Assembly: GCA_035536935.1 (NCBI GenBank)
Contig: DATLNC010000183.1
Span: 188-64,187 of the forward strand
Origin: Thermoanaerobaculia bacterium
GTDB lineage: Bacteria; Acidobacteriota; Thermoanaerobaculia; Multivoradales; UBA5704
DNA length: 64,000 nt
Direction: 5' to 3'
The translations under genes were made by a program, and so were the position numbers. The notes below the pieces were generated by a model that saw only the letters and a program-made list of their open reading frames with translations, was not told the DNA's origin and did no database searches. Within the stretch, counting starts at the first letter, position 1. Every line of letters begins with the position of its first letter. Positions 3,110 to 62,257 of this stretch are shown piece by piece.

Positions 3110-5692
3110 GTGACCGACCTCGCCCTGCCAACTGCCCTTTCCCTGGAGCCCGAGCGCCCGGCCCGGGTATCGCTCGCCTCCCGGATCCGGCCCACTTCCG
3201 ATCCGGACGAGATCCTCGACCTCTTCGTGGACTGGGCCGCCGAGGCCGGGTTCGAGCTCTACCCGGCTCAGGAAGAAGCGCTCCTTGAGATCATGGCCGG
3301 CCGGCACGTGATCCTGAACACCCCGACCGGCTCGGGCAAGTCGCTGGTCGCGCTCGGCCTCCACTTCAAAGCCCTGTGCGAGGGACGGACCTCCTTCTAT
3401 ACGAGCCCGATCAAGGCGCTCGCCTCCGAGAAGTTCTTCGCCCTCTGCGACGAGTTCGGTGCCGAGAACGTGGGCATGCTCACCGGCGACGCCAGCATCA
3501 ACCCCGATGCCCGGGTGCTCTGCTGCACCGCTGAAGTGCTGTCCAACATGGCGCTGCGCCGGGGGGACCGCCTCGACGCCCCCTATGTGGTCATGGACGA
3601 GTTCCACTACTACTCCGACCCGGAGCGGGGCGTGGCCTGGCAGATCCCCCTGATCGTGCTCCCCCGCACGCGTTTCCTCCTGATGTCCGCCACCCTGGGC
3701 GACGTCAGCGGGATCGCCGAGCACGTCCGCCGCCGGACGGAGATCGAGGTCTCCCTGGTCACCTCGGAGCAGCGGCCCGTCCCCCTCGACTTCGACTACC
3801 GGGAGATGCCGCTCCACGAGACGGTCGAGTCCCTGCTCGAAACGGCCAGGTCGCCGATCTACATCGTCAACTTCACGCAGCGGGAGTGCGCCGAGCTGGC
3901 CCAGTCACTCACCAGCATGAAGATCTCCAGCCGGGAGGTGCGCGAGCGCATCCGCGAAGCCATGGGGGGCGTGCGGCTGGATACCCCGTACGGCAAGGAG
4001 TTCCGGCGCTTTCTCTCCTTCGGGATCGGGGTGCACCACGCGGGCCTCCTGCCCAAGTACCGGCTCCTCGTCGAGCAGCTCGCGCAGCAGGGGTTGCTGC
4101 GGGTGATCTCCGGCACCGATACGCTGGGGGTCGGGGTGAACATCCCGATCCGCACGGTGCTCTTCACCCGGCTGGCCAAGTTCGACGGCCGCAAGGTCTC
4201 GCTCCTCTCGGTGCGGGACTTCAAGCAGATCGCCGGCCGCGCCGGGCGCAAGGGGTTCGACACCGAGGGCAGCGTGGTGGCCCAGGCGCCGGAGCACATC
4301 ATCGAGAAGCGCCTGGCCGAGCGCAAAGGGAAGAAAGTACAGGCCAAGTCGGCCGCCAAAGGGGAGGTCACCTGGACCCAGGAGACCTTCGACAAGCTGA
4401 TCACCCGGCCGCCGGAGACCCTGAAGTCCCGCTTCCGGGTCACCCACGGCACGGTCCTCGACCTCCTCCAGCGCGACGCCGAGCTCGACGATCCGGACCT
4501 GCGCAACTTCGACTCCCTGCGCGACCTCATCAGCCACTGCCACGAGGAGGAGGGGTCGAAGGCCCGGCATCTCTCCCAGGCGGCGGTCCTGGTGCGCTCG
4601 CTCTACCGCGCCGGGATCATCCGGATGAAGCGCGACAAGGTGGGCACCTACCTCTGGGCGGTGGTGGCCGAGGACCTCCAGTGGGACTTCTCCCTCCATC
4701 ACGCCCTCTCGCTCTACCTGGTGGAGACGGTCGATCAGCTCAGCCCGGAGTCCGAGACCTACGCGCTCGACCTGATGACCCTGGTCGAGTCGATCCTGGA
4801 GGACCCGGACGTCATCCTCCGCAAGCAGGTGGACAAGATCAAGGGGGAGCTGGTCGCGCAGCTCAAGGCGGACGGCATCCAGTACGAGGAGCGCATGGAG
4901 CGGCTGGAAGAGATCACGCATCCGAAGCCGCTCGCGGACTTCCTCTACGGCACCTACAACCGCTTCCGGGGAGAGCACCCATGGGTGGGCGGGCACGACG
5001 TCCATCCGAAGTCGATCGCCCGCGAGATGTACGAGGGCTACATGTCCTTCGCGGACTATGTGAAGAAATACGGCCTGCAGCGCAGCGAGGGGGTGCTGCT
5101 GCGCTACCTCTCGCAGCTCTACAAGACGCTGGACCAGAGCGTGCCCGAGTACGCGAAGACGGCCGAGGTCTGGGATGCCCTGGGCTACTTCCGGGCGCTG
5201 ATCCACCACACGGACACGAGCCTCCTGGAAGAGTGGGAGAGCCTGCTCCACCCCGAGCTTCGCCTGATGCGCCTGCAGCGCCACCAGGCCGCCGAGGCGC
5301 TCTGGCTCAAGCAGCTGCTCGCCGACCCCAAGGCCTTTGCCGCGAGGATGAGGGCCGAGCTGCACCTGCTCGTCCGCGCCCTCGCCGAGAAGGAGTGGGA
5401 GGACGCCTCCGCGGCGGTGCTCCAGGACGCGGACGATCCCTGGACCCCGGAGCGTTTCGAAGAGTCGCTGAAGCCCTTCTACGAAGAGTACGGCGAGCTG
5501 GTCTTCACCCCGGAGGCCCGCCGCCACCAGCACACCCACATCCGCGAGGTGGACGAGCGCGTCTGGGAAGTGGCCCAGACGATCCTCGACCCGCAGGGCG
5601 ACAACCTCTGGGCCGTGCAGGGGATCGTGGACCTGCGGGACCCGGATGTGATGGACGGCCCGCTGGTGAAGGTGGCGCGGGTGTCGGCGTAG
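3110..5692 (+). CDS. Ski2/DEAD-DEAH-type helicase with a long C-terminal domain (DUF3516-type architecture)
   Basis: Walker A TPTGSGKSLVA, DEFH box VVMDEFHYY, MSATLG, GVHHAGLLP, TDTLGVGVNIP, QIAGRAGRKG. A conserved tail of about 400 aa follows. Confidence 0.85.
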   Translation: MTDLALPTALSLEPERPARVSLASRIRPTSDPDEILDLFVDWAAEAGFELYPAQEEALLEIMAGRHVILNTPTGSGKSLVALGLHFKALCEGRTSFYTSPIKALASEKFFALCDEFGAENVGMLTGDASINPDARVLCCTAEVLSNMALRRGDRLDAPYVVMDEFHYYSDPERGVAWQIPLIVLPRTRFLLMSATLGDVSGIAEHVRRRTEIEVSLVTSEQRPVPLDFDYREMPLHETVESLLETARSPIYIVNFTQRECAELAQSLTSMKISSREVRERIREAMGGVRLDTPYGKEFRRFLSFGIGVHHAGLLPKYRLLVEQLAQQGLLRVISGTDTLGVGVNIPIRTVLFTRLAKFDGRKVSLLSVRDFKQIAGRAGRKGFDTEGSVVAQAPEHIIEKRLAERKGKKVQAKSAAKGEVTWTQETFDKLITRPPETLKSRFRVTHGTVLDLLQRDAELDDPDLRNFDSLRDLISHCHEEEGSKARHLSQAAVLVRSLYRAGIIRMKRDKVGTYLWAVVAEDLQWDFSLHHALSLYLVETVDQLSPESETYALDLMTLVESILEDPDVILRKQVDKIKGELVAQLKADGIQYEERMERLEEITHPKPLADFLYGTYNRFRGEHPWVGGHDVHPKSIAREMYEGYMSFADYVKKYGLQRSEGVLLRYLSQLYKTLDQSVPEYAKTAEVWDALGYFRALIHHTDTSLLEEWESLLHPELRLMRLQRHQAAEALWLKQLLADPKAFAARMRAELHLLVRALAEKEWEDASAAVLQDADDPWTPERFEESLKPFYEEYGELVFTPEARRHQHTHIREVDERVWEVAQTILDPQGDNLWAVQGIVDLRDPDVMDGPLVKVARVSA

Positions 5693-5700
5693 GACCGTCG

Positions 5701-5925
5701 GAACTGACTTCCGGGCGGTGGGAAGTCAGTTCCGGACGATGGGAAGTGACTTCCGGACAGTCGCAAGTGAGCTCCGGAGAGGAGGAAGTGACATCCGGAC
5801 GGTTGGAAGTGAGCTCCGGGCCTTGGGAAGTGAGCTCCGGAGGATGGGATCTCACTTCCGGGTGGTGGGAAGTGACTTCCGAGCGGCGGGGAAGTGACTT
5901 CAGGATGCCCGGAAGTCAGATGCGC
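5701..5925. repeat. Family-A phased palindrome array, copy 1 (11 units of 21 nt)
   Basis: Units start at 5701, 5722, 5743, 5764, 5785, 5806, 5827, 5848, 5869, 5891 and 5912. Core GAAGTGACTTCCGG plus a 7-nt linker RNNNTGG. Confidence 0.95.
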
Positions 5926-5968
5926 GGGAGCCTTCCGGCCCCCGCGCGTTGTTGCGGTCAGCGTCGGC

Positions 5969-6421
5969 TCAGTTGCCGGAAGAAGCCGCCGCGACGGCCA
6001 TGCCCTTGGCCTCTTCGTAGCAGGCGGAGGCGACCGCGCTGTCCTTCTTCAGGCCCAGGGCCTGCCAGCAGGCATCCATCGCGGCCTTCCGGTTGCCCTT
6101 CTCGATCGACATCTGGCCGATGGCAACCAGCGCGTCATGGTTCGGCTGCAGCGCGTTGGAGCTCTGGAACTCCGCCCAGGCCTTCTCCAGGAGCTTCGCC
6201 TTCTTCTTGGCGTCCGTCTCCTTGTCGGCCTTGTCCTTGAAGCGCAGACCCTTGGCGAGGTGGTCGGCGGACTTCACCTGCGGATCCTTGTAGTTGCCAC
6301 CGAAGCTGGTGTTCGAGCCGACGCCGCGGTCACCGGTCGGACTTCCGAATTGCGCGCTCGCCGGAACGGCCAGCGCGAGGGTCAGGACGGCAACGGCGAA
6401 GAGCTTCTTGAAGGTGTTCAT
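5969..6421 (-). CDS. Small secreted helical (TPR-like) protein
   Basis: ATG 6419-6421 is preceded by AGGAGAG. Signal peptide MNTFKKLFAVAVLTLALAVPASAQ. Helical Lys/Ala-rich body. Confidence 0.7.
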   Translation of the reverse strand: MNTFKKLFAVAVLTLALAVPASAQFGSPTGDRGVGSNTSFGGNYKDPQVKSADHLAKGLRFKDKADKETDAKKKAKLLEKAWAEFQSSNALQPNHDALVAIGQMSIEKGNRKAAMDACWQALGLKKDSAVASACYEEAKGMAVAAASSGN

Positions 6422-10318: not shown

Positions 10319-10418
10319 GAAAAGGACCCAAAGGACACCAAGGACCGCAAGGACATCAAGGACGGGCTTCCGGGTCCTTGCGGTCCTTGATGTCCTTGCG
10401 GTCCTTTATGTCCTTGAT
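10319..10418. repeat. Mirror-image block of 9-nt iterons (5x NNNAAGGAC, centre, 5x GTCCTTNNN)
   Basis: 18-bp perfect inverted repeat 10346-10363 / 10383-10400. Located in the tldD / carboxyltransferase divergent intergenic region. Confidence 0.9.
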
Positions 10419-12396: not shown

Positions 12397-13650
12397 ATGA
12401 CCGATTACCGATCGCTGAAAGCGGTAGACCCCGAGGTCTATCAGGCCATTGCCGAGGAACGCTCCCGCCAGAATTTCGGCCTGGAGCTGATCGCCTCCGA
12501 AAACTTCGTCAGCCGCGCCGTGCTGGAAGCGACCGGCAGCGTCATGACGAACAAGTACGCGGAGGGCTACCCCGGCCGCCGCTACTACGGCGGCTGCGAG
12601 TTCGTGGACGTGGCCGAGCGCCTCGCCATCGACCGCGCCAAGCAGATCTTCGGCGCCGAGCACGTGAACGTCCAGCCCCACAGCGGCACGTCGGCCAACA
12701 TGGCCGTCTACTTCGGCTTTTTAAAGCCGGGCGACAAGCTGATGGGCATGGACCTCTCCTGCGGCGGCCATCTCACCCACGGCCACCGTCTCTCCTACTC
12801 CGGCCGCGATTTTCAAGTGGTGGCCTACGGCGTGGACAAGGAGAGCGAGCGCATCGACTACGACGAGGTCGAGCGCATCGCCATGGAGGAGCGGCCGAAG
12901 CTGATCGTCTGCGGCGCGAGCGCCTACAGCCGGGTCATCGACTTCGAGCGCTTCGGTGCGATCGCCGAGAAGGCCGGCTCCCTGCTGATGGCCGACATCG
13001 CCCACATCGCCGGCCTGGTCGCGGCGGGCATCCATCCGTCCCCGGTCCCGCACTGCCACTTCGTGACCACGACCACGCACAAGACCCTGCGCGGCCCGCG
13101 CGCGGGAATGGTCATGTGCAAGGAGCCGTTCGCGAAGGACCTCGACCGCTCCGTCTTCCCCGGCATCCAGGGCGGACCCCTGATGCACGTGATCGCGGCC
13201 AAGGCGGTGTCCTTCAAGGAGGCGCTGACCGAGGAGTTCCGCGACTATCAGCGGCAGATCGTGGCGAACGCGAAGCGCCTGGCCGAGCGCCTGATCGAGC
13301 GCGGCTTCCGCATCGTGTCGGGAGGCACGGACAACCACGTCTTCCTGCTCGACGTGGCCGCTGCCGGCCTGACCGGCAAGGTGGCCGAGAAGGCGTTGGA
13401 GGCCGCCGGCATCACGGTGAACAAGAACACGATCCCCTACGATACGAACCCGCCGCTGGTCGCCTCCGGCATCCGCCTCGGAGCGCCGGCCCTGACCACC
13501 CGCAACATGCGGGAGCCCGAGATGGAGCAGGTGGGCGACTTCATCGCCGAGGTGCTGCGCTCGCACGAGGATGCCGCGGTGCACGAGCGGGTGCGCGGGC
13601 AGGTGCGGGAGCTGTGCGAGCGGTTTCCGCTCTATGACCCTCTGATGTGA
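12397..13650 (+). CDS. glyA: Serine hydroxymethyltransferase
   Basis: Full-length SHMT: [35 protein letters not shown]. Confidence 0.97.
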
Positions 13651-13826
13651 GGGTAGACCCCTCTACCCGGTGGGTGCGGACCCCAAACGACCGGGTAGAG
13701 CCCTGCGTTTCCTCGATCTTGTCTGAAATTGACCGGGTAGGTTCCTTCTACCCGTTGGTTGGAGCAGATTACCCAACAGGTAGACCCCTCTACCCGCTCG
13801 TTTGAGCCGCCTACCCGCTGGTTTCT
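13651..13826. repeat. Array of GGGTAG-N6/7-CTACCC hairpins (family C)
   Basis: GGGTAGACCCCTCTACCC (13651), CGGGTAGGTTCCTTCTACCCG (13732), GGTAGACCCCTCTACCCG (13769), plus half sites. The array fills the glyA/folC convergent gap. Confidence 0.85.
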
Positions 13827-15062
13827 CTAGTAAAGCGGCCCGTTGGCGGGTTGCGGGACCCCAAACCGCTCCCGCAGCCGCTTGCGGACCTCCCCGATCA
13901 GGTAGATCGAGCCGCAGACCACGAGCCTGACTCCGGGCTGAAGCGCGCGATCGAGCGCCTGTCCCAGATCCGGCACGATCTCGACTTCCCTTCCGGGCAG
14001 AAGCGTGGCCAGCTCCTCCGGTGACCGGGCCCGGTCACTGGCCGGGGTGGTGAGGACGATCCGGCGGGCCCGCTCCGCGAGCGGGCCGAGCATCTCGGCA
14101 ACGTCCTTGTCCCCGAGCACTCCGAAGAGGAGATCGAAAGGACCTTTCAGGAACGCCGCCAGGGCGGCGGCTCCCTCGGGATTGTGGGCGGCGTCGAGCA
14201 GGACTTGCCGGTCCCCGGGGAGATCTACCCTCTCCAGGCGGCCAGGCCAGCGGCAGGAGCGGGCTCCCTCGGCGATCGCCTCGGGGCCGATCCCCAGCTC
14301 CTCGGCGGCGAGGACCGCAAGCGCCAGGTTCCTCGCCTGGTGCGCTCCGGGGAGGGTGAGCTCCAGGTCGTGCTCCCCTTTGGGTGTGGTGAGCCTCACC
14401 CTGTTGCCGTCCTGCCGCAGGGTGACCAGCTCGGGTGCGAAGTGGAGGTCGGTCCCCAGCTCGGCGGCCACGGCCCGGACGGCCGCGGACGGCTCCGGGT
14501 CCTCGAGCCAGACCAGGGCCGGACGGCCAGGCCGGAACGTGCCCGCCTTCTCCCTGGCGATGGCCGCGAGCGTGTCCCCCAAATGCTCGCGGTGCTCCAG
14601 GCTGATGGAGGTGATCAGCGACAGCTCCGGCTCGCAGACGTTGGTGGCGTCCAGCCGGCCTCCCATCCCGACCTCGATGACGGCCAGGTCGACCTGGCGC
14701 TCGGAGAACCAGAGGAAGGCGGCGGCGGTGACCGCCTCGAAGTAGGTCGGCGACTCGGCCTCGACGATCCGTTTGAGCAGCGCGGCGAGCTCTTCGGGAT
14801 GGATGGCGCGGCCGTCGATGCGCAGCCGCTCCTCGACCGATTCCAGGTGAGGGGAGGTGTAGAGCCCGGTCTTGAGGCCGGCGGCGGAGGCCATGGCGGC
14901 GAGCAGGGCCGAGGTCGAGCCCTTGCCGTTGCTGCCGGCCACGAGGACCGTGCGGTAGTGGAGCTGCGGATTGCCGAAACCGGCGAGGAGCTGGCGGACG
15001 CTCTCCAGCCCGAGCCGGATGCCCAGCTTCTCCAGGCGGGCGAGGATCTGCTCCGCGTTCAG
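13827..15062 (-). CDS. folC: Folylpolyglutamate synthase / dihydrofolate synthase
   Basis: [10 protein letters not shown]-loop and Mur-ligase body. The conserved N-terminus [41 protein letters not shown] lies upstream of the first canonical start (GTG 14942). The 5' end is placed at CTG 15060-15062, which overlaps the accD stop. Confidence 0.85.
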
Positions 15063-16252: not shown

Positions 16253-18943
16253 CTATTGCGGGGGAGGCTCGCCCTCGGATGCCGCGGCGTCGGCCGCCTG
16301 CTTCTTCTTCTTCGCTTCGGCTTGCAGGCGCTCCAGCTCCTTCTGATACTTCCGCAGCTCGGCTTCCTTCTTCTTGCGGATGGAGGCCTCGCGCCGCGCC
16401 ATCTCCTCCTTGACCATCTTTTCGATCTCGTCCTGGGAGAGGGCCGCGGCCGACTCCGGGGTTGGGACCGGAGCGGCGACCGGGACGGGTGCCGGGGACT
16501 TCGGCGCCTGGGCCGCCGGAGCCTGCCTCTCGGCCGGGGTATTCGCCGGCGCATTCGCCGCGGGCCGGCGCAGGAACAGGAAGGTCAGGATCGCCACCAC
16601 GACCAGGGCGGCAATGATCATATAGAGGAGGTTGCGGCTGCGGGGCGCGGTCTCCCCCACGTGGACTTCGCCCATGGGGGCCACCGCGGCGAGTATTGGC
16701 TCCCGGAGCGGCTCCGGCTCGGGAGCGGGCTCGGGCGGGGCGGGCCACTCGGGAGCGACGAAGGAACCCTCCAGCTCCAGCTCCAGCTCGGGGGCCGGGG
16801 CTGCCGCTGCCGCCGGCGGCGGCACGGCCGCCGGGTAGGCGGGGGCGCTCCAGTCGCCGCTCGCCGGCTCCTCCTCCAGGACCTTGTGCACCCAGGCCGC
16901 CAGGTCGGTGGGATCGGGCGACAGGCCGAGCGCGTGGAGCACGGACTCGATCTTCTGCTTCATCTCGCCGGCGCTGGCGAAGCGGGCCTGCGGGTCGTAG
17001 GCGAGGGCGCGGGCCACGATCTCGTCCACCTCGACCGGGATCGACGGATCGCTCTGCCGCGTGGAGCGGATCTGCCCCTGGCGCACCGCTTCCAGCACGG
17101 AGATCTCGGTGTCGCCGGTGAACAGGCGCTCGCCGGTGAGCATCTCGTAGAGGACGGAGCCCAGGGAGAAGAGGTCCGAGCGCGAGTCGACCGCCCGGCC
17201 CCAGGCCTGCTCGGGGGACATGTACTGCAGCTTCCCCTTGAGCGCGCCCATCTGGGTCTGACCCGCTTTCGACACGGCCTTGGCGATGCCGAAGTCGCAG
17301 AGCTTGACGTCCCCCTCCAGGCTGAGGAGCACGTTCTGCGGCGAGACGTCCCGGTGCACCAGGCCCATCTCCCGGTCCTCGAAGTCCCGCTTGCGGTGGG
17401 CGTAGTCGAGGGCGCTGGCCAGCCGGGCGGCGATGAACAGCGCCAGCCCGAGGGGGAAGCGCACCCCCTTGCGCCGGCCGGCGTTCATCAGCGACCGCAG
17501 GTCCTTGCCGTCGACGTACTCCATCGCAATGTAGTAATCGCGGCCGATCTTGCCGAGGTCGTAGATGTGGACGATGTTCGGGTGGCTGAGCTGCGCCGCG
17601 AGCTTCGCCTCGTCGATGAACATGCCGACGAACTCGGAGTTGTCGGTCATGTGGGACAGGATCTTCTTGATCGCGACCGTCTTCTGGAACCCTTCGACGC
17701 CGCGCATCCGTGCCTTCCAGACCTCGGCCATGCCGCCGGCCGCGATCTTCTCCAGCAGCGTGTACTGGCCGAAGCGCTCGCCGCCCTCCATGGCTTCCGC
17801 GATATCGGAGAGCGGCGGCAGCTGGATGCGCTGCGTGGCGGCTGCGTCCACGACGCTCATGACGCTGCGGCCGGCCGGCGCCGGGATTGGAGTGAGAACC
17901 GGAGCAGCGGCCGGCTCGGGGATGGGCGGCCAGTCGGGCACCTCGGGCGGTTCCGGGAGGGCCTCGATGACGGCCTCCGGCATCTCCTCCGGTTTTTCCT
18001 CCGGCAGGACCTCCACGACCGGGGGAGGCGGCGGCGGCGGTGCCGCGACCACCTCCAGGGGAGGAGCTGGCGGGGGAGGGACCGGTTTCGGCTCGGGCCG
18101 TCGGGGCCGGGCCATCTCCTCCAGAGCGGAGATGTCGATCGGCCCCGTGTTGCGTGCCTTGGCCGGAGCCGGCGCGGCCGGCTTGGGGCGTCCGAGCTCC
18201 AGGGTCGAGAGCGTGCGGCTCAGCATGGCGTCGACGTCCCCGGAAGGCTCGGCCCGGCGGGGCGGAGGCGGGGGCGCAGCGGCCGGCTTCGGGGGAGCAG
18301 GAGCCGGAGCGGCTGGAGCCGGAGCCGGACGCGGTTTGGGCTCGCCGCCCAGCCCGAAGACGCCCGAGAGCGTCTGCTCGAGCTTGCGGTTGAGCTCGTC
18401 GTCGTCCCGGAGCGGGGGAGCGGGCCGGGGCGGGGCGGCCGGAGCCGGACTCAGAATGGGAACGGGAACGGGAGCGGGCCGCGGCGCGGGCGCAAGGAAG
18501 GGGGAGGCGCTCCCGATCTCCTCGTCCGAGTCTGCCTCCACCTCGGCCAGAACGTCGCCGAAGATGTCGTGCGAGGTGAGCATTACGGCGGAAGAGGGCG
18601 AAGCCTTCCTGGCGTTGCGCTGCACCACCAGGCGCAGCTCCTTGTCCGTGAACGGCTTGTTCAGATGGTCGTCGGCCCCGATCTCTGTGAACGGGCCCTC
18701 GCTCTCGGCGAGCAGCGCGACGACGCCGGGGCCTCCGCCCTGCCGGCGGAAGAGGTTGATGATGTTGTCCACACCCGGCGCCTCGGAGCTGATGAGGATC
18801 AGCGCCGGACTCTCGGTGGCCGCCACGTGCACGGCCGATTCGGACTGGTCCGCGACGCGGATGCTCCAGCCGTCAGCGCCCAGAGCGGCGCGAATCCGCT
18901 CGATGTAACGAGGCTCGGGCTCGACGACGAGGATCGAGGACAT
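16253..18943 (-). CDS. Membrane Ser/Thr protein kinase with N-terminal receiver-like domain
   Basis: AGGAGAG RBS. REC-like N-terminus, Pro-rich linkers, Hanks kinase motifs (AAGGMAEVWKA, VAIKK, HRDVSPQNVLL, DFGIAK, SPEQ), TM helix LLYMIIAALVVVAILTFLFL, Lys/Glu coiled-coil tail. Confidence 0.9.
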   Translation of the reverse strand: MSSILVVEPEPRYIERIRAALGADGWSIRVADQSESAVHVAATESPALILISSEAPGVDNIINLFRRQGGGPGVVALLAESEGPFTEIGADDHLNKPFTDKELRLVVQRNARKASPSSAVMLTSHDIFGDVLAEVEADSDEEIGSASPFLAPAPRPAPVPVPILSPAPAAPPRPAPPLRDDDELNRKLEQTLSGVFGLGGEPKPRPAPAPAAPAPAPPKPAAAPPPPPRRAEPSGDVDAMLSRTLSTLELGRPKPAAPAPAKARNTGPIDISALEEMARPRRPEPKPVPPPPAPPLEVVAAPPPPPPPVVEVLPEEKPEEMPEAVIEALPEPPEVPDWPPIPEPAAAPVLTPIPAPAGRSVMSVVDAAATQRIQLPPLSDIAEAMEGGERFGQYTLLEKIAAGGMAEVWKARMRGVEGFQKTVAIKKILSHMTDNSEFVGMFIDEAKLAAQLSHPNIVHIYDLGKIGRDYYIAMEYVDGKDLRSLMNAGRRKGVRFPLGLALFIAARLASALDYAHRKRDFEDREMGLVHRDVSPQNVLLSLEGDVKLCDFGIAKAVSKAGQTQMGALKGKLQYMSPEQAWGRAVDSRSDLFSLGSVLYEMLTGERLFTGDTEISVLEAVRQGQIRSTRQSDPSIPVEVDEIVARALAYDPQARFASAGEMKQKIESVLHALGLSPDPTDLAAWVHKVLEEEPASGDWSAPAYPAAVPPPAAAAAPAPELELELEGSFVAPEWPAPPEPAPEPEPLREPILAAVAPMGEVHVGETAPRSRNLLYMIIAALVVVAILTFLFLRRPAANAPANTPAERQAPAAQAPKSPAPVPVAAPVPTPESAAALSQDEIEKMVKEEMARREASIRKKKEAELRKYQKELERLQAEAKKKKQAADAAASEGEPPPQ

Positions 18944-22635: not shown

Positions 22636-23940
22636 ATGAAAAAGCTCAAATTGTTGTTGTTGGTGGCGCTGGTGGGCCTATGGCCCATGCTGGCGTTGGC
22701 AGGAGAGGAGGCAAACGGTCCGACGGCGACAGGCGAGACGGGGCTCTTCACCCTGCTCAGCGGTGAAACCCTGCCTCAAGGCGGGTGGTCTTTCGGTCTG
22801 TATTACAACAACTGGGACCGCCTGATCGACTTCGACGACGATTTCTTCGGCGAGGACATCGACGATGACGGCGCAGAGCCCAGCGTCGACTGGAACCGGA
22901 TCAGCGCCAGCCTGGGCTACGGCATCACGGACCGCTGGGAGCTCAGCCTCATGGTTCCGTACGATGACCTCGAGGTCGACGACGACGACCTGTTCTTCGA
23001 CAATGACGATCTGGATGCCAGCGGCATCGGCAACGCCCGTCTCGGCACTAAGTTCCGGCTGATCGGCAACCGCGGCGAGGAAGGGACGAAGCTGGCCCTG
23101 AACCTCTTCGCCGAGCTCCCCACGGGCGATGACGACGTGGCGTCCGACGACGTCGGGTTCGGCGCCGGCCTCGGCTGGAGCCGCGCGAACTGGGTCTTCG
23201 ACATCGGCTACCGGGCTCCGGGCGACGATGACGAGGTGGACATTTCCGATGAGCTCCACGCGGGCATCGGCTATGCCGCGGGGATCAGCGACCGCTTCGA
23301 CTGGATCACCGAGGTGGTCGGCACCTTCTACGGCAACGGCGACATCGGTTACGAAGATGCCGTCGACCTCACCACCGGCGGCCGGCTCTGGCTCGGCGAC
23401 GGCAACTGGGCATTCAACTTCGCGCTGCGCACCGACTTGATGCAGCTCAGCGACATCGACGAGCACTGCCCGATCGGCGGCCTCCTCGGCCTGTCGCTCT
23501 TCCCCCGGATGTTCCAGGAGGAAGAGGTCATTCCGCCGCCGCCGCCACCTCCGCCGCCTCCGGCTGATGTGCCGCCGCCGCCGCCCCCGGCTCCGCCGCC
23601 ACCCCCGCCGCCTCCGCCGCCAGCTCCGCCGGCGCCTGAGCGGATGGAAGTGACGTGCGACTTCACTTCGGGCAGCGCCCGGACGAGCAACATCTGCAAG
23701 GCCCGCCTCGACGAGGTGGCTCTGCGGATGAAGCAGGAGTCCGACGCGACGGCTCAGGTCATCGGCTATGCCGACGGCACGTCCGGCTCGCAGTCCGCCA
23801 ACCAGCGGGTTGCCGAGCAGCGCGCCGAGGCGGTGAAGAACTACCTGGTGACGCGCCACGGGATCGACCCGAGCCGCATCACCACGGAAGGCCAGGTCAC
23901 CGACAGACTGTCGGCCGTGGTCATCCTCACCATCCCCTGA
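22636..23940 (+). CDS. OmpA-family outer-membrane protein with a poly-proline linker
   Basis: Signal peptide, Asp-rich beta-barrel half, a Pro tract of about 35 residues. OmpA-like C-terminus: ARLDEVALRMK...VIGYADGTSGS..NQRVAEQRAEAVKNYLV. Confidence 0.85.
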   Translation: MKKLKLLLLVALVGLWPMLALAGEEANGPTATGETGLFTLLSGETLPQGGWSFGLYYNNWDRLIDFDDDFFGEDIDDDGAEPSVDWNRISASLGYGITDRWELSLMVPYDDLEVDDDDLFFDNDDLDASGIGNARLGTKFRLIGNRGEEGTKLALNLFAELPTGDDDVASDDVGFGAGLGWSRANWVFDIGYRAPGDDDEVDISDELHAGIGYAAGISDRFDWITEVVGTFYGNGDIGYEDAVDLTTGGRLWLGDGNWAFNFALRTDLMQLSDIDEHCPIGGLLGLSLFPRMFQEEEVIPPPPPPPPPPADVPPPPPPAPPPPPPPPPPAPPAPERMEVTCDFTSGSARTSNICKARLDEVALRMKQESDATAQVIGYADGTSGSQSANQRVAEQRAEAVKNYLVTRHGIDPSRITTEGQVTDRLSAVVILTIP

Positions 23941-28396: not shown

Positions 28397-28621
28397 GGGC
28401 AAGTCACTTCCCCACGGCCGGGAAGTCATTTCCCACAGCTCGGAAGTCACTTCCCCAGGCTGGGAAGTCATTTCCCGCAGTCCGGAAGTCACTTCCCACC
28501 CTCCGGCAGTCCTTCCGACCGTCCCGCAAGTCACTTCCCATGACCCGGAAGTCACTTCCGACCACCCGGAAGTCATTTCCCAACGCCCGGATCTCAGTTC
28601 AGAACGCCCGGAAGCTGTCTC
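28397..28621. repeat. Family-A phased palindrome array, copy 2 (11 units, inverted orientation)
   Basis: CCGGAAGTCACTTC cores start at 28397, 28419, 28440, 28461, 28482, 28503, 28524, 28545, 28566, 28587 and 28608. Confidence 0.95.
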
Positions 28622-28652
28622 CGAATAGTACTCCGGTACAATCCCTGCCCGC

Positions 28653-29273
28653 ATGAGCTACTGGGTCTGGCGCGACCATCAAGGCGATGTCGAAGTCCGG
28701 TTCACGGGCCGGGGGCCTGCCGGAGAGCGGGACGAGATCCTGGCCTGTATCGAGCGGGGCGCTCCTCCGGTCGCCTGGGCGAAGCAGATCCACTCCGCAA
28801 CGGTCCTGCCCGCCCATCCCGGACATTGCGGCGAGGGGGATGCCCTCTTCGGGGATGCTCCGGACCTCGCGCTGTCCGTGGTGACGGCCGACTGCGTGCC
28901 GGTCCTTCTCGCCGGTCCCAAGGGATTGGCGGCGGTCCACGCCGGATGGCGGGGGCTGGTCGGCGGCGTGATCCCGGCTGCGTTGGAAAAGCTTGGTGGA
29001 GCAGATACGGCCTGGATCGGTCCGGCGATCGGACCCTGCTGCTACGAGGTGGGCGAGGAGGTGGCGGAGCAGTTCCCGGAGGAAACGGTCATTCCCGGAC
29101 CCAAGCCGCACCTGGACCTGGTCGCGGCGGCCCGGCTCCAGTTGAAGGATGTCGAGGAGATCCGCGCCGTGGGGATCTGCACGCGGTGCGCGGCGGACCG
29201 GCTCTACAGCTATCGCAGGGAAGGCAAGGGGGTGGGGCGGAACGTGGCTTTCATCTGGAGGCGGTCCTCCTGA
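28653..29273 (+). CDS. pgeF: YfiH/PgeF-family (DUF152) peptidoglycan editing factor / laccase-domain protein
   Basis: QIHSATV, TADCVPVLL, AVHAGWRG, GPCCYEVG, ICTRC..LYSYRREG. Confidence 0.88.
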   Translation: MSYWVWRDHQGDVEVRFTGRGPAGERDEILACIERGAPPVAWAKQIHSATVLPAHPGHCGEGDALFGDAPDLALSVVTADCVPVLLAGPKGLAAVHAGWRGLVGGVIPAALEKLGGADTAWIGPAIGPCCYEVGEEVAEQFPEETVIPGPKPHLDLVAAARLQLKDVEEIRAVGICTRCAADRLYSYRREGKGVGRNVAFIWRRSS

Positions 29274-33247: not shown

Positions 33248-33574
33248 CTACGAGTCCGAGAGCGGGGGCAGCTTGCGCCGGGCCGACTTCCGGTTGGCGA
33301 GCCCGTAGTCCTCCGAGGCGATCCCCAGGTCGGACACCTTGTTGCGGAGGGTGTTGCGGTGGACTCCCAGCGACTTGGCGGAGCGGCAGAAGTTGCCCCG
33401 GTTGGTCTTGAGGGAGGCCACGATGAACTGGCGCTCGAACTCCCGGCGTGCCTGCTCGAGGGTCAGGCCGCGGCGGACGAGCTCGTCGACGATTTGGAAC
33501 AGGCGTCCATTGAGGTTTTGATCGGCCAAGAACGTTTCCTCGGGGAACATTTGCGCTGCGAACCAGGGAAGCAT
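33248..33574 (-). CDS. Fis-type helix-turn-helix DNA-binding protein
   Basis: C-terminal NRGNFCRSAKSLGVHRNTLRNKVSDLGI. The start may be 33550. Confidence 0.75.
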   Translation of the reverse strand: MLPWFAAQMFPEETFLADQNLNGRLFQIVDELVRRGLTLEQARREFERQFIVASLKTNRGNFCRSAKSLGVHRNTLRNKVSDLGIASEDYGLANRKSARRKLPPLSDS

Positions 33575-47164: not shown

Positions 47165-47782
47165 ATGAGCACCCGGCCCGCTATTGCCAACGCCCCTGAG
47201 TACGAGCCCTCGACGATTGAGGAGTTCCTCGCCTGGGAGGATGACAGATGGGCGGAGTGGGTGGACGGGAAAGTCATCCGAATGGCGGCAGTCACCTACG
47301 GACATCAGGAGATCGTCGGCTTTCTTTGGGGACTTCTGAGCCTCTACATCGAAGCGCACGACCTGGGCTGGATCACGGCGGCCCCGTACGCGATGCATCT
47401 GCCCAGTCGCCAGAGGGTGAGGGAGCCGGATCTGCTTTTCGTATCGCGCGAGCACCTGGCTCTTCGCAGGGACCTCTACCTGGACGGCGCCGCGGATCTC
47501 GTGGTCGAGGTCGTCTCGCTTGACAGCCGCAGGCGGGACCGGGTCGAGAAGGTCATCGACTATGAGACGGAGGGCGTCCGGGAGTACTGGCTGATCGACC
47601 CTCGCCGCAGGCAGGTGGAGCTTCGGCGCTTGGGCGAGGATGGCCGCTACAGCCTGGTCGAGCCCGAGGAGGGGATTTTCACCTCCTCGGCCATCCCGGG
47701 ATTCCGGCTCCGCATCGACTGGCTCTGGCAGCAACCCAAGCCGAAGCTCCTCGACGCCGCCCGCGAGCTGGGCCTCTTCTGA
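47165..47782 (+). CDS. Uma2-family (DUF820) PD-(D/E)xK endonuclease-like protein
   Basis: EWVDGKVIRM, EPDLLFV, ADLVVEVVS, YETEGVREYWLIDP. Confidence 0.85.
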   Translation: MSTRPAIANAPEYEPSTIEEFLAWEDDRWAEWVDGKVIRMAAVTYGHQEIVGFLWGLLSLYIEAHDLGWITAAPYAMHLPSRQRVREPDLLFVSREHLALRRDLYLDGAADLVVEVVSLDSRRRDRVEKVIDYETEGVREYWLIDPRRRQVELRRLGEDGRYSLVEPEEGIFTSSAIPGFRLRIDWLWQQPKPKLLDAARELGLF

Positions 47783-47800: not shown

Positions 47801-48170
47801 GGGCCGATTTGAGGGGCTTAGACTCGATCCAAGAAGCCTAGACCGGGTTCAAGGAGCTTGGATCCGTCCGAAGAAGCTCCGGGCCGATTTAAGCGGCTTG
47901 AATCGGATCTAAGAGGCTTAGAGCCCGATTCAAGCGGCTCCGACCGGATTTAAGAAGCTTAAATCGGATCTAAGAGGCTTGTGTCCGTCCCAAGAGGCTC
48001 AGATCCGATCTAAGAAGCTTCGAGCCGGATTCAAGGAGCTTAGATCCCATCCAAGAAGCTCAGACCGGAATTAAGAGGCTTGGATCCGATCTGAGAAGCT
48101 TCGAGCCGATCCACGGATTTTGGGACGGTTTCAAGGAACGTGGGGCCGGTCCAAGCGGCTTACAGCGCCT
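47801..48170. repeat. Family-B phased array (about 18 units of 20 nt, AAGAAGCTT + RGATCNGATCY)
   Basis: AAG unit starts at 47831, 47851, 47871, 47891, 47911, 47932, 47952, 47972, 47992, 48012, 48033, 48053, 48073 and 48093, continuing to about 48153. Confidence 0.93.
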
Positions 48171-48286: not shown

Positions 48287-50599
48287 CTACAGCATCTCCA
48301 GGTTCGCGAACTTCGCCACCAGCTTCCTCTTCCCCGCCTTCTCGAAGAAGACGGTGAGCCTCATCTCTTCCCCCTGACCCTCCATCTCCAGGACGACTCC
48401 GGCGCCGAGGGTGGGGTGGCGCACCCGGCTGCCGCGCTTGATCGGACGCCGGGGGACGGCGCTCTCGTCCGGCTCGGGGACCACCACGCGGCCAGTTGGA
48501 CGCGGAGTGTACGGAGAGGGAACCGAGGGACGGGGGGCGGGCTGGAAAGAAGATGAGCGCGCCGGAGGAGCCGCCTGCGGGGGCGCGGCCTGGCCGAAGA
48601 AGGAGTAGATTCCCTGGGCGCGCTCGGTCACCCGGCCCGACAGGTAGAGGTCGGGGCTGTGGTGGACGTCGACGAGCTGGTCCGGCAGCTCTTGAAGGAA
48701 CGGCGACTCCATCTGGTCCTGATAGCGGCCGGCGATGCGGCGCCTCCGGCAGCAGGTCAGGTACAGCTTTTCCCGCGCCCGGGTCATCCCGACGTAGAGC
48801 AGGCGGCGCTCCTCCTCGATGTCGTCCCTCGCGCCCTGGGAGTTGAAGTGCGGAAGGAGCCCTTCCTCGAGACCTGCCACCACCACCGCCTTGAACTCCA
48901 GACCCTTGGCGCTGTGCAGGGTCATCAGCGAGACCCCCTTTTCCACTTGGAGTGAGTCGAGGTCCGTCACCAGGGCAATGTGGTCGAGGAAGGCGGTCAG
49001 GAGATCCTCGTCGCCCTGGTTGTAGCTGCTCGCCTCGGTGAACTCCTGGGCGGCGGAGAGGAACTCCTGGATGTTCTCCAGCCGGGCGACGTCGTCCGGA
49101 TCATCCTGGTTGTAGAGCTTGGCGTAGCCGGTGTCGTCGAGCAGCCGGTCGAGCAGGGCGGGCAGCGGCAGACCCTGGGACGCCTCCTGAAGGCCCACGA
49201 TCAGGTCGCGGAACTTGCGCAGGGCCGTGGCGCTGCGGGCAGGGAGCGTGCCCAGGTCGTCGAGATAGAGAACGTCCCAGATCGGCTGGCCGAGCTGGAC
49301 CGCCCGGTCGCGCAGCAGCTCCAGGGTGGACTTGCCGATGCTCCTCGGCGGCTGGTTGATGATCCGGCCCAGGGAGAAGTTGTCCCGCGGGTTGCGCAGG
49401 ACCCGCAGATAGGCGACCAGGTCCTTGATCTCGGCCCGGTCGTAGAAGCGGACGCCGCCGACCAGCGAGTAGGGGATCTCGCGCTTGAGCAGCTCGTCTT
49501 CGATCGCCCGGGTCTGGGCGTTGGTGCGCACCAGAACCGCGAGGTCCCCGAGCTTGTACTGGTGGCGGAGCTTCTGGATGCGGTCCACGATCCAGTTGGC
49601 CTCGTCGCCCTCGTCCGTGGCCTTGTAGAGCTCGGCCTTGGGGCCGGCGCCGTGCTCGGTCCACAGGCGCTTGCCCCGGCGGTGGACGTTGTTGGCGATG
49701 AGGGCGCCGGAGACGTCTAGGATGGTCTGGGTGGAGCGGTAGTTGCGCTCCAGCTTGCGCACCTCGGCGCCGGGGAAGGTCTTCTCGAAGTCGAGGATGT
49801 TGTCGAGGTCCGCGCCGCGCCAGCGGTAGATCCCCTGGTCCTCGTCGCCCACGGCCGTGAGGTTGCCTTCGGGGCCGATCAGCTCCTGGATGAGGCGGAG
49901 CTGGGCGTGGTTCGTGTCCTGGTACTCGTCCACGAGGAGATACCGGGTGCGGCGACGGATCCGCTCCTTGACCTCCGGGTCGTGGGAGAGGAGCTTGACC
50001 GATAGTGTCAGGAGGTCGTCGAAGTCCACGCCGGAGGCCTGGCCGAGGAGCCCCTGGTACTTCCGGTAGAGCGAGGCGACCTTCTTCTCGAAGAAATTGG
50101 TGGCGGCCGATTCGTAGGCCGCAGGCTCGATGAGCTTGTTCTTGGCGCCGCTGATCTGCGAGAGGACCGAGCGCGGCGAGAAGGCGGTCTCGGAGAGCCC
50201 CTCGGCCGAGAGCGCCTCCTTGACCAGGCCGAGCTGGTCGGAGGTGTCGAGGATGGCAAAGTCCCGCCGCAGGCCGACCCGCTCGCCATAGCGGCGGAGC
50301 AGGATCAGACCATAGCGGTGGAAGGTGCCCACGGAGGTGGGGAGCGGATGAAGGCCGAGGAGGTCTTCGACCCGCTCGCGCATCTCGGCCGCCGCCTTGT
50401 TGGTGAAGGTCATGGCGGCGATGTGGCCGGGATCGACTCCGCGCTCCTCCACGAGCCAGGCGATGCGGTAGGTAATGACGCGGGTCTTGCCCGATCCGGC
50501 GCCGGCGAGGACGAGCTGAGGGCCGTCGCCATGGGTCACGGCGGCGATCTGCTCGGGGTTGAGCTGCTTCTCGAGGTCCTGGGTGCTGGTCCGTCTCAC
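48287..50599 (-). CDS. pcrA: UvrD/PcrA-type ATP-dependent DNA helicase
   Basis: LNPEQIAAV, AGAGSGKT, LLVDEYQDTN, YRSTQ, MTLHSAKGLEF, YVGMTRA. C-terminal Tudor-like tail. Confidence 0.93.
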   Translation of the reverse strand: MRRTSTQDLEKQLNPEQIAAVTHGDGPQLVLAGAGSGKTRVITYRIAWLVEERGVDPGHIAAMTFTNKAAAEMRERVEDLLGLHPLPTSVGTFHRYGLILLRRYGERVGLRRDFAILDTSDQLGLVKEALSAEGLSETAFSPRSVLSQISGAKNKLIEPAAYESAATNFFEKKVASLYRKYQGLLGQASGVDFDDLLTLSVKLLSHDPEVKERIRRRTRYLLVDEYQDTNHAQLRLIQELIGPEGNLTAVGDEDQGIYRWRGADLDNILDFEKTFPGAEVRKLERNYRSTQTILDVSGALIANNVHRRGKRLWTEHGAGPKAELYKATDEGDEANWIVDRIQKLRHQYKLGDLAVLVRTNAQTRAIEDELLKREIPYSLVGGVRFYDRAEIKDLVAYLRVLRNPRDNFSLGRIINQPPRSIGKSTLELLRDRAVQLGQPIWDVLYLDDLGTLPARSATALRKFRDLIVGLQEASQGLPLPALLDRLLDDTGYAKLYNQDDPDDVARLENIQEFLSAAQEFTEASSYNQGDEDLLTAFLDHIALVTDLDSLQVEKGVSLMTLHSAKGLEFKAVVVAGLEEGLLPHFNSQGARDDIEEERRLLYVGMTRAREKLYLTCCRRRRIAGRYQDQMESPFLQELPDQLVDVHHSPDLYLSGRVTERAQGIYSFFGQAAPPQAAPPARSSSFQPAPRPSVPSPYTPRPTGRVVVPEPDESAVPRRPIKRGSRVRHPTLGAGVVLEMEGQGEEMRLTVFFEKAGKRKLVAKFANLEML

Positions 50600-60562: not shown

Positions 60563-61366
60563 ATGACCACGAAGAAGGACGGCGAAGGCCAGGGCAGCTA
60601 CGTCTTCCGTGTCCGCGAGGACACCCGGCGCTACGTCCAGGACCTGCTCAACGAGAACGACCGGCTGCGCCGGCTGGTGGCGGGGCTGGAGAGCGACAAG
60701 GGCCGTCTCCTGGGCGAGAAGATGTCGCTCCAGGAGAAGGTCCTGGCCCTGCGCGAGGAGCTCGACCGGGTCTCCCACGAGCAGGCCGACCTTCGCCGCC
60801 AGCTCGCCGACGTGGAGGCCTCCAACCAGAAGTACTCGCACCAGTACATCGAGGTGGAGAGCCAGAACAACAACCTGGCGAACCTCTACGTCGCGAGCTA
60901 CCAGCTCCACAGCACGCTCGACCGGGCCGAGGTGGTCTCCGCGATCAAGGAGATCGTCATCAACCTGATCGGCTCCGAGGAGCTGGCGATCTACGAGATG
61001 AGCCCGGACGGCACGGCGCTGCGGCTGGCAGGCTGGTTCGGCATCGACCCGGCCATCTACGGCACCGTGACGGTCGGCTCGGGGATCATCGGGAAGACGG
61101 TCGCGACCGGCGAGATCTGGCTCCCCGGCAAGGGCATGGACCTCCAGCCCGCGCCGCGGGAGTCGAACCTCTCGGTCTGCATCCCGCTGAAGCTGGAGGA
61201 AAGGGTGATCGGAGCGCTCGCCGTCTTCCGCCTGCTCCCCCAGAAGACCGCCTTCGAGGCGATCGACTACGAGCTCTTCAACCTGCTGGCCACCCACGCC
61301 GCCACGGCCCTGTATCTTTCCCGGCTCCACGCCGAGAGCCAGGCAGCAGTGAAGTCAGTTCCCTGA
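60563..61366 (+). CDS. Coiled-coil plus GAF-domain protein
   Basis: GGAGG RBS. Coiled coil of about 100 aa, then a GAF-like region LDRAEVVSAIKEIVINLIG...GIIGKTVATGE...VIGALAVFRL. Confidence 0.8.
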   Translation: MTTKKDGEGQGSYVFRVREDTRRYVQDLLNENDRLRRLVAGLESDKGRLLGEKMSLQEKVLALREELDRVSHEQADLRRQLADVEASNQKYSHQYIEVESQNNNLANLYVASYQLHSTLDRAEVVSAIKEIVINLIGSEELAIYEMSPDGTALRLAGWFGIDPAIYGTVTVGSGIIGKTVATGEIWLPGKGMDLQPAPRESNLSVCIPLKLEERVIGALAVFRLLPQKTAFEAIDYELFNLLATHAATALYLSRLHAESQAAVKSVP

Positions 61367-61560
61367 CGTCTGACATGACTTCCGGGGGCTCGGATCTCAG
61401 TTCCGGGCCGCCGGAAGTGAGTTCCGGGGGGCGGGAAGTGACTTCCGGACAGGGGGAAGTCATTTCCGGACGTTGGGAAGTGAGTTCCGGGCCTTGAGAA
61501 GTGAGTTCCGGACGGTGGGAAGTGAGCTCAGATCGCTCGGAAGTGACTTCCGAGCCGTAC
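61351..61560. repeat. Family-A phased palindrome array, copy 3 (10 units, exact 21-nt phase)
   Basis: Units start at 61351, 61372, 61393, 61414, 61435, 61456, 61477, 61498, 61519 and 61540. Confidence 0.95.
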
Positions 61561-61561
61561 C

Positions 61562-62257
61562 TCAGTGGCAATACCGGGTCAGATCCTTGCGGTTGAGCAC
61601 CCGGATCCGGTGGTCCGGCTGCACGGCGATGAGTCCGCGCTGCTTCAATTCCACGACAACCTGGTTCACCCGCTCGCGGGAGGCTCCCACGATCTCGCCG
61701 AGGTCGCTCTGGGTGAGGCGCAGCGGGATCGTCACCTGGCCTCCCGCCTCGCGGCTGCCGTAACGGTCGGCCAGGGCGAGGATCTGGCGGGCGACCCGGC
61801 CGGCCACGTCCAGCGTGCAGAGCGCCTGGATCTGCTCGTTCGCGAAGCGCAGGCGGATCGAGAGCAGCCGCACCAGGTTGTTGGCGAGCGGCGTCATGTT
61901 GCGCAGGCAGCTCTGGAAGGTGCTGCGGTCCATCCAGAGAAGCCGGGACTTCTCCGTGGTCACCACGTTGGCGGAGCGGCCCGAGCTGTCGATCAGGCTC
62001 ATCTCGCCCACCGTGTCCCCGCGGCCGAGGAAGGCGAGGATGACCTCGCGGCCGTCCTCGTGGCTGACGTAGATCTTCACCGTCCCCTCGAGGATGACGT
62101 AGACCACCTCCCCGGGCTGCTCGACCGTGATGAAGTTCGTGCCGGCCGGGACGGAAGAGGAGCGCAGGAGCCCGTTCAGGTGGGCGAGGTCCTCGGCGGA
62201 CAACCCCTGGAAGAGCTCCAGCTCCCCCAGGGCACGGGGATCTTCGATGGCGGGCAT
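61562..62257 (-). CDS. Crp/Fnr-family transcriptional regulator
   Basis: cNMP-binding LFQGLSAEDLAHL...GDTVGEMSLID. C-terminal HTH TQSDLGEIVGASRERVNQVVVELKQRG. Start at ATG 62255-62257. Confidence 0.9.
   Translation of the reverse strand: MPAIEDPRALGELELFQGLSAEDLAHLNGLLRSSSVPAGTNFITVEQPGEVVYVILEGTVKIYVSHEDGREVILAFLGRGDTVGEMSLIDSSGRSANVVTTEKSRLLWMDRSTFQSCLRNMTPLANNLVRLLSIRLRFANEQIQALCTLDVAGRVARQILALADRYGSREAGGQVTIPLRLTQSDLGEIVGASRERVNQVVVELKQRGLIAVQPDHRIRVLNRKDLTRYCH

Follow-up and report, generated by a model that had tools for sequence, protein, structure and literature searches.

What kind of element fills the gaps between the genes of a bacterial chromosome with short near-palindromes that return, head-to-tail, at every second turn of the double helix? 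The question is raised by a 64-kb stretch of contig DATLNC010000183.1 (assembly GCA_035536935.1), from a Thermoanaerobaculia bacterium of the phylum Acidobacteriota; this whole stretch is referred to below as the window. The repeat, which we call family A, is a unit made of a core, GGAAGTGACTTCCGG, and a 6-nt linker, repeated head-to-tail, and it forms three arrays: copy 1 at 5700-5931 on the plus strand, copy 2 at 28397-28622 on the minus strand and copy 3 at 61350-61559 on the plus strand. We propose that these arrays are lineage-specific, dispersed intergenic minisatellites of the Thermoanaerobaculia, helically phased and with a core that is read as duplex DNA by a putative dimeric protein; we would put the probability of this reading at about 45%. 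Across the class of arrays as a whole, it is the repeat period, equal to two turns of B-DNA, that is conserved, and not the sequence of the unit.

The 15-nt core is almost exclusive to the arrays. With up to two mismatches allowed, it matches the window (67.8% G+C) 24 times, against 0.21 +/- 0.46 matches expected from 100 dinucleotide shuffles of the window, and all 24 matches fall within the three family A arrays. Copy 1 consists of 11 units, one with a 7-nt linker and the last degenerate, which start (counted from G1 of GGAAGT) at 5700, 5721, 5742, 5763, 5784, 5805, 5826, 5847, 5868, 5890 and 5911, so that nine of the ten spacings are 21 nt and one is 22 nt. Copy 2 also has 11 units, with a single 22-nt step, and copy 3 has 10 units, the first of them degenerate, with every step at 21 nt. 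Tandem Repeats Finder (TRF) reported a period of 21 and 9.6 copies at 5700-5901 for copy 1, and the ranges 28401-28614 and 61380-61557 for copies 2 and 3, in both of which it also detected a super-period of 42 nt. Altogether there are 32 family A units across the 64 kb, all of them extragenic; together with an array of a second family, B, described below, they make up about 1.5% of the window. The first-pass annotation of this DNA had described copy 1 as 11 units in a 21-nt phase with a single 22-nt step, lying between a helicase gene that ends at 5692 and a convergent stop at 5969, and had announced two further copies. All of this is borne out by our analysis (the unit starts are shifted by one base, and both gene ends are those of the open reading frames, ORFs), as distinct from its linker pattern RNNNTGG, which matches about half of the units.

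Each unit is composed of two inverted GGAAS half-sites around TGA, followed by CCGG and then by the 6-bp linker. The near-palindrome within it is 13-15 bp long and has a 1-nt centre; for comparison, the definition of repetitive extragenic palindromic (REP) elements asks for imperfect palindromes of 20-40 bp, high in copy number and extragenic. Among 29 window units, core positions A3, A4, T6, A8 and T11 are nearly invariant, and strong conservation is also seen at G1, G2, G7, C12, C13, G14 and G15; either G or C occurs at positions 5 and 9, and the linker is almost unconstrained at all six of its positions. For these 29 unfiltered units, pairwise identity reaches 79% over the core and 43% over the linker. 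Per-position conservation was also computed on a wider set of 133 units. The unit is asymmetric through its centre and its flanks, and its orientation is uniform within each array, as the central G, the 3' CCGG and the G-rich strand consistently indicate.

Units of the same array are no more alike than units of different arrays. Identity stands at 69.0% for units of one array and at 68.6% for units of arrays that lie 20-55 kb apart, and the copies are therefore neither fresh local amplifications nor copies of a 220-bp block. When the three copies were compared, they had no ends in common and neither terminal inverted repeats nor duplications of a target site. The earlier suggestion of a dispersed 220-bp element needs correction in this respect: copying in one block is rejected, units at matched positions being no closer to each other than other units. 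A miniature inverted-repeat transposable element (MITE) is rejected on similar grounds, namely the lack of common ends and of a collinear diagonal together with the equal unit identity within and between arrays. The collinearity of variant units on which the suggestion drew is weak: only three pairs of units match at 18-20 of 21 positions, in the same order but at differing offsets, and no diagonal stands out in the unit-by-unit identity matrices.

The period is far more constant than the sequence. Over 12 arrays from several genomes, the spacings between units are 21 nt in 96 cases, 22 nt in 20 cases and 20 nt in a single case, with a mean of 21.16 bp. The 21-nt phase is kept in copies from several genomes, and deviations in unit length are almost exclusively of +1, with 17% of the units being 22 nt long. 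The units have diverged by about 30% and yet contain very few insertions or deletions. It had also been argued that all palindromes face the same side of the helix; the 21-nt phase that this relies on is indeed the most robust property of the arrays, though it is a property of geometry alone and carries no evidence of binding.

The same period recurs in arrays of unrelated sequence. In a 177-kb set composed of the window and the loci of five relatives (L003, L004, L061, L062 and L063), there are 11 non-coding arrays that measure 70 bp or more; each of them has a period of 21 (or 42 or 63) or 20, and together they comprise at least six distinct unit sequences. Three further arrays with a 21/20 period were found in L064, L066 and L067. 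Within the window, this wider class is represented by the family B array at 47805-48166, located between a Uma2-family gene (47165-47782, plus strand) and uvrD (48287-50599, minus strand). It contains about 17 units of the type GATYYAAG-NNN-CTTRRATC-S with a period of 20 (two of 21), and it is built of inverted GATCTAAG half-sites whose centres alternate between 3 nt and 1 nt. Different families may also abut. In the composite arrays of L008 (500-860) and L045 (1-230), a few family A units flank about nine ACGGAGAGGCTTCCGCGTCTC units, and in L036 (1000-1420) about fourteen units of the type CCCCATC-NNG-ATGGGG adjoin family A units. L063, a more distant relative whose helicase is 77% identical, carries two abutting and unrelated 21-nt arrays at 16993-17277 in a single divergent gap, namely 9.3 copies of GCTTTCCATTAGGGGCGGCGG followed by 4.4 copies of TTCCGCCGGGGTCTCCGGAGC with 95% matches. 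Some of the unit families may descend from one another, since other families contain the family A pieces CTTCCG and GTSAS.

The arrays are non-coding, and they are not maintained by base pairing in RNA or in single-stranded hairpins. In a set of 146 units from 15 arrays, the five base pairs of the unit hairpin form in 75.5% of cells, compared with 77.8 +/- 0.7% after shuffling of the 3' partners, and all 500 shuffles reached or exceeded the real value. The covariation score of the hairpin is 0.070 against 0.092 in the shuffled set, and positions 5 and 9 pair with each other less frequently than independence would predict. A hairpin of the single unit, in RNA or in single-stranded DNA, is rejected by these two counts. 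Hairpins between neighbouring units and a fold of the whole array are rejected as well: the complementarity of adjacent units is not above that of permuted units (P = 0.13), and although arrays fold better than dinucleotide shuffles (z = -6.6 and -8.0), their folding energy is the same with real and with permuted unit order (z from -0.9 to +0.5), which makes the high stability an automatic consequence of palindromic units. In family B, compensatory changes that look convincing by eye gave P = 0.81 in a permutation test. Rfam returned no match for the whole window; in the array region itself only two microRNA models appeared, at the chance level of E = 0.13-0.31 and far below their gathering scores. 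Translation into heptad repeats is excluded by the 22-nt units (17%), by the absence of a three-base rhythm in the variability along the unit and by public gene calls that place no genes on the arrays; the period of 20 in family B is likewise at odds with it.

In related genomes the array persists in the same gaps. A scan of metagenomes with a two-unit pattern returned 54 loci, of which about a dozen are true family A arrays of 6-17 units on short contigs of 62-69% G+C. A two-unit pattern gave only two chance matches, without arrays, in a genome collection, in which the source genome itself was not among the matches. Several of the metagenomic arrays alternate GGAAGTGAC and GGAACTGAC units, with linkers alternating too, which results in a 42-nt super-period. 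Two loci, L017 and L021, represent the same site in two genomes and differ by two units. At the gap behind the helicase gene, L005 is identical to the window. In L003, which is a closed genome of 8.38 Mb (ENA ERZ25039485 contig_1998), and L004, the helicase protein is 97-98% identical, with 88.6-88.8% identity at third codon positions. In both of these, a PIN toxin-antitoxin (TA) pair lies directly past the helicase stop and is followed by a family A array of 11-12 units (at least 12 in L004, against 11 in the window). This array aligns to copy 1 unit by unit, the end units being the best preserved, at an identity of 70-75%, which is about that of any two units. The arrays at this gap thus change faster than synonymous sites (70-75% against about 89%).

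The changes between the two versions follow a pattern. In nearly all units of L003 and L004, the linker end GTG has become CAG and core position G2 has become T, in parallel, and a few units of the old type are left in L004. Such a mosaic of old and new units would be given by an exchange of units between dispersed arrays, or by a shift in what the putative reader accepts. The L004 array runs antisense to the genes on either side of it. L061, with a helicase 93% identical, has about ten units of another sequence, GGTCAGGCGCGTCGTGAGAGA, at this site, again at period 21. The gap 3' of the Crp gene is occupied by copy 3 in the window; in L066 (Crp 97% identical) it contains a CAG-type family A array, inverted relative to Crp, with a MazE/PIN cassette after it, and in L064 (Crp 94% identical) it contains a MazE/PIN cassette and, past this, a family B array of 430 nt (1899-2322) and period 20. 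Orientation to the neighbouring gene is thus not kept between relatives. The arrays therefore evolve by gain and loss of units, exchange of unit types and occasional replacement of one family by another, and the period survives throughout. For the gap of copy 2, no orthologue was recovered, since the best methyltransferase matches on long contigs are paralogues in other contexts.

PIN-type TA cassettes adjoin the arrays in five relatives' loci and in both gaps examined (L003 12592-13256, L004 12595-13256, L061 12691-13103, L064 1226-1857 and L066 1208-1926), and the arrays of the window have none. Either the array borders or gaps are hot spots of insertion, or cassettes and arrays travel together. 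In L062, whose helicase 3' gap contains no array, a long, GC-rich inverted repeat (GGGCGGGGGCGCCCTCTCCCGCGAAGCGGGGGAGGG and its complement) at 13440-13970 encloses a stretch of about 450 nt on the downstream side of a PIN cassette. A further locus, L030, was set aside. Its array (327-521) lies on a contig of 35% G+C and has 11 units with the core GGAAATGACTTCTGG at an exact 21-nt period, inside an open frame of 151 codons with heptads such as GTPEVIS; because it was drawn in by the search pattern itself and is possibly coding, it is not counted as conservation across phyla.

How can sequence turnover and a constant period be reconciled? The core can be taken as recognised by its sequence, as it is conserved across loci and genomes where linkers are free and local homogenisation is absent. 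A dimeric protein that binds duplex DNA would be the simplest reader, since neither base pairing nor the orientation towards adjacent transcripts has been preserved. With steps of 21 bp, one dimer after the next would come to lie on the same side of the helix, an arrangement like that of plasmid iterons and centromeres of the parC type, and an array of about 210 bp could then be coated cooperatively. Such a protein might serve the host, for example by forming an architectural or insulating complex in the gaps, or it might serve only the propagation of the repeat.

Several observations weigh against this proposal. The top strand of the arrays is G-rich (39% G and 22% C), which a pure duplex-binding model does not require. 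The many unit families would need either many proteins or one that is tolerant of sequence. The family A units on either side of the family H block in L008 are out of register by 14/21 nt, which means that the phase is kept within blocks and not across them. Near-identical blocks, such as the seven units of the ACGGAGAGGCTTCCGCGTCTC block in L045 or the 95% matching stretch of L063 (17185-17277), indicate recent amplification of the kind typical of neutral or selfish satellites, and the sharing of gaps by arrays and TA cassettes suggests that these are permissive sites. A 21-bp period could be inherited through amplification of whole units without any selection. Intrinsic curvature as a purpose of the period came out weak and inconsistent: wedge models (Bolshoy-Trifonov and De Santis parameters) gave end-to-end ratios of 0.72-0.99 for the arrays and 0.35-0.37 for a positive control with phased A-tracts, so that predicted curvature is modest, and models and families disagree.

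A rival reading is a neutral or selfish library of minisatellites, in which variants spread by slippage, unequal exchange and ectopic conversion, with no function for the host. The period would be inherited through whole-unit copying and the gaps would merely tolerate extra DNA. We regard this as unlikely, though as a possibility to be taken seriously. It would agree with a turnover above the synonymous-site rate, with the differences in unit number at orthologous loci, with arrays that are mosaics of old and new unit types, with composite arrays whose blocks of other families are in part near-identical and hence recent, with the replacement of families at orthologous gaps, with the motifs CTTCCG or GTSAS that distinct families have in common and that suggest descent, and with the occupation of every gap type, TA cassettes adjoining. 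Drift and amplification do not, however, predict conservation at specific core positions beside free linkers in the absence of local homogenisation. The strong bias of length deviations (20 of 22 nt against one of 20 nt) and the rarity of indels in units that differ by about 30% also speak against it, and slippage offers no route by which a repeat could disperse to many unrelated gaps. The two readings overlap, because a selfish repeat can also depend on a protein that reads it. An element of the type of REP sequences and bacterial interspersed mosaic elements (BIMEs), that is, single-stranded hairpins mobilised by a domesticated Y1 (HUH) transposase, the REP-associated tyrosine transposase (RAYT), and clustered in arrays with a possible role in gyrase or IHF binding or in mRNA stabilisation, seems improbable to us. 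The units are, like those elements, short, intergenic, clustered near-palindromes of high copy number, the window contains more than one family (A and B) as do genomes with several REP families, clusters vary in size and families interchange as in SMAG repeats (PMC2613905), and tandem REP clusters are known (PMC3733652). Against this stand the missing GTAG/CGTC tag beside the palindrome, a stem without compensatory changes in families A and B, the exclusively head-to-tail arrangement of the units, a period fixed at 20-21 bp where SMAG repeats range over 50-103 bp without a rule, and the absence of a Y1 transposase among the 49 window ORFs.

An element acting in RNA, whether an untranslated-region fold or a set of repeated motifs that stops exonucleases, terminates transcription or titrates an RNA-binding protein, appears quite improbable. 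Copy 1, with the helicase stop on one side and a terminator-like hairpin on the other, is therefore probably part of that transcript, each unit contains GGA motifs, and the arrays fold far better than their shuffles; this stability is nevertheless automatic and survives permutation, and covariation is seen neither within units nor between neighbours. Moreover, copy 2 is situated between divergent promoters, the array of L066 is inverted relative to Crp and that of L004 is antisense to both of its neighbours, and an RNA element gives no reason for a 21-nt period common to unrelated units. Coding heptad repeats (21 nt being seven codons, with xxPEVTS on the reverse strand) are hardly credible. 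A period that is a multiple of three, some frames that stay open across the arrays and the 151-codon frame around the L030 array are in their favour; but the 22-nt units break the frame, the period of family B is 20, variability shows no three-base periodicity, gene callers skip the arrays in L003, L004, L005, L061 and L066, and the arrays fit exactly between complete genes.

The proposal of a protein-read, helically phased minisatellite can be carried one step further, to a version that we consider quite unlikely. Intergenic arrays of about 200 bp, characterised by their two-turn (21 bp) period and not by sequence, could be loading platforms, found chromosome-wide, of abundant architectural proteins that mark the limits of genes or insulate them. 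The coat on one side of the DNA would be formed by a single tolerant protein or by a family of paralogues evolving together, and a rapid turnover of the unit sequence would go along with changes in the specificity of the protein. This would explain the parallel GTG-to-CAG and G2-to-T changes as well as the replacement of families at the same gap. The window encodes, at 33248-33574 on the minus strand, a 108-aa protein with a Fis-type HTH_8 domain that could conceivably be an architectural DNA-binding protein, though nothing ties it to the arrays.

Dispersed short palindromic repeats (REP, BIME, SMAG and MIRU, the mycobacterial interspersed repetitive unit) have long been known and are poorly understood. 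If the arrays are read by a protein, they would offer a tractable chromatin-like or insulating feature of bacteria in a large, uncultured soil lineage, and a natural experiment on the co-evolution of binding sites and their reader. If they are not, they would represent satellite-DNA dynamics of the eukaryotic type within a compact bacterial genome. In either case, they can be used as strain markers for the lineage.

The setting of the arrays is that of an ordinary chromosome. All 49 long ORFs with coding-type third-position GC were scanned with Pfam, and they correspond to common chromosomal genes (SHMT, GatB, RuvC, YebC, UppS, CdsA, RseP, BamD, UvrD); transposase, replication, partition and cas genes were not among them. 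Homologues of the DUF3516 helicase are annotated as metagenome-assembled Thermoanaerobaculia (Acidobacteriota), and the window is core chromosome of a Thermoanaerobaculia bacterium. Copy 1 begins 7 nt past the stop of this DUF3516 DEAD-box helicase gene (3110-5692), and its other neighbour is a convergent gene of 161 aa with its stop at 5969. Copy 2 fills a divergent gap. On one side of it is a minus-strand S-adenosylmethionine (SAM)-methyltransferase gene (27493 to about 28377); on the other is a plus-strand YfiH/Cu-oxidase_4 gene (28653-29273) that starts with ATG at 28653. Copy 3 occupies the entire 195-nt convergent gap between a GAF-domain gene, whose stop (61364-61366) falls within the first, degenerate unit of the array, and a Crp/Fnr-family gene with its stop at 61562-61564 on the minus strand. 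The first-pass annotation had placed the array in a convergent gap, which is correct for copy 1 and does not apply generally, as copy 2 is in a divergent gap; overall, the arrays are found in convergent, divergent and co-directional gaps of a housekeeping chromosome.

A GC-rich hairpin absent from the first-pass annotation, GCGCGGG-N12-CCCGCGC, is located at 5922-5947, where copy 1 gives way to the convergent gene and its stop. The degenerate last unit of copy 1 overlaps this hairpin, which is itself separate from the array units. Counterparts exist in L004 (about 13720-13757) and L061 (about 13506-13536), and the arms are altered on both sides in relatives (GCGCGGG/CCCGCGC against GAACGAGGG/CCCTCGTTC). 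The hairpin is probably the stem of a terminator, though it falls short of the T-tract criterion of the scanning tool; scans for promoters and terminators around copies 1 and 2 gave no match. At the edge of copy 2, the motif CCGGTACAAT (28633-28642) contains a -10-like TACAAT and lies 10 nt ahead of the yfiH ATG. The motif recurs between the array and the antitoxin start, on the sense strand of that gene, in L003 (about 13271-13280) and L004 (about 13277-13286).

Two other repeats of the window are of a different nature. Positions 10322-10415, before a carboxyltransferase gene (ATG at 10444), carry five AAGGAC hexamers at an exact 9-nt spacing; GGGCTTCCGG comes next, and after it a second set of five hexamers, GTCCTT, also spaced by 9 nt, with 9 matches against 0.27 expected. 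As the 3-nt spacers are not complementary between the two arms, the set looks like an array of motifs and not like a hairpin. Runs of AAGGAC are also present in L003 (9932-9983), L061 (14433-14467) and L062 (20517-20585). At 23532-23636, within an OmpA-family gene (22636-23940), there is an imperfect CCG-triplet repeat of about 35 copies; no other tandem array of 70 bp or more in the window is intragenic.

How do the arrays compare with repeats that have been described? The first-pass annotation did not recognise a known family, and neither do we: Rfam scores stay below gathering thresholds, blastn against plasmid and phage collections found nothing similar, and the literature searched contains no description of such arrays. 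It had also dismissed an intrinsic terminator, with which we agree, and a CRISPR array, which is rejected here too, given a 21-nt unit with a 6-nt linker and the lack of cas genes among the window proteins. CRISPR arrays have repeats of 24-48 bp and unique spacers of similar length, usually accompanied by cas genes, and the linker here is patterned. ToxI-like RNAs of type III TA systems, with repeats of about 36 nt directly upstream of a toxN-type endoribonuclease gene, were rejected as well, because the unit is 21 nt long and no toxin gene adjoins the arrays in the window; the PIN cassettes beside the relatives' arrays are two-gene modules with a protein antitoxin.

Among the dispersed palindromes, REPINs are inverted doublets, BIMEs alternate in orientation, and head-to-tail dimers are rare in REP families; here, by contrast, all units of an array have the same orientation and inverted doublets are not seen. 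Likeness to REP/BIME and SMAG repeats lies in short (about 20-25 nt) GC-rich palindromes that are abundant, intergenic and arranged head-to-tail at several loci (PMC2613905, PMC3733652, PMC2817692). REP clusters are known in tandem reiteration, and a REP carries by definition a conserved tetranucleotide, GTAG or CGTC, at one of the palindrome's ends (PMC3733652). In family A neither tetranucleotide occurs at a fixed position, and the palindrome is flanked by RCGGTG or NNGCAG linkers and by CCGG. The stem shows no covariation, its 1-nt centre makes a poor hairpin, and the Pfam scan of the 49 window ORFs found no RAYT. The SMAG clusters of Stenotrophomonas vary in size, and related families interchange at a locus (PMC2613905). 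Family A resembles them in that unit number depends on the strain, related families swap at a locus and the genome has a G+C content of about 66-68%. SMAG clusters are, however, made of 50-103 bp repeats without a rule (PMC2613905), where the arrays described here have a fixed period of 21 (or 20) bp and no co-amplified flanking DNA.

MIRUs of mycobacteria have units of 46-101 bp, are oriented with the operon and sometimes contain small coupled ORFs. They share with family A the tandem arrangement of one unit family over many intergenic gaps and a copy number that varies between strains, and differ from it in that its units are 21 bp long, near-palindromic and found in either orientation and in any type of gap. 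As a class, dispersed minisatellites describe the arrays well, as a head-to-tail family is present at several loci and unit number differs between relatives. In Neisseria, dRS3 elements and the Neisseria intergenic mosaic elements (NIMEs) form intergenic mosaic arrays that attract insertions, with dRS3 copies set apart by repeat segments of 50-150 bp. Across unit borders, family A has the layout ACTTCC-N8-GGAAGT, a 6-8-6 arrangement comparable to ATTCCC-N8-GGGAAT of dRS3; its units are, however, abutted at a 21-bp period, and no association with an integrase or phage was seen. dRS3 goes by the name CGTC-1 in PMC3733652.

The closest parallel in geometry comes from plasmids. Iterons and centromere-like arrays, such as the iterons of R6K and RK2, the 20-bp repeats of pSK41 parC and sopC of F, are arrays in which every repeat serves as a binding site and which are coated cooperatively by a protein; they provide the model for the way in which the arrays described here might work. 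Family A shares with them direct repeats of about 20-22 bp in helical phase, within the 17-22 bp expected of such repeats. The plasmid arrays are single loci beside rep or par genes, and the Pfam scan of the window found no such genes near the arrays; here at least three arrays lie within 64 kb of chromosome, and the class comprises many unit families. Dispersed short palindromic repeats and minisatellites are known as such, and what sets the present arrays apart is a two-turn period that is kept across many unit families despite their fast turnover.

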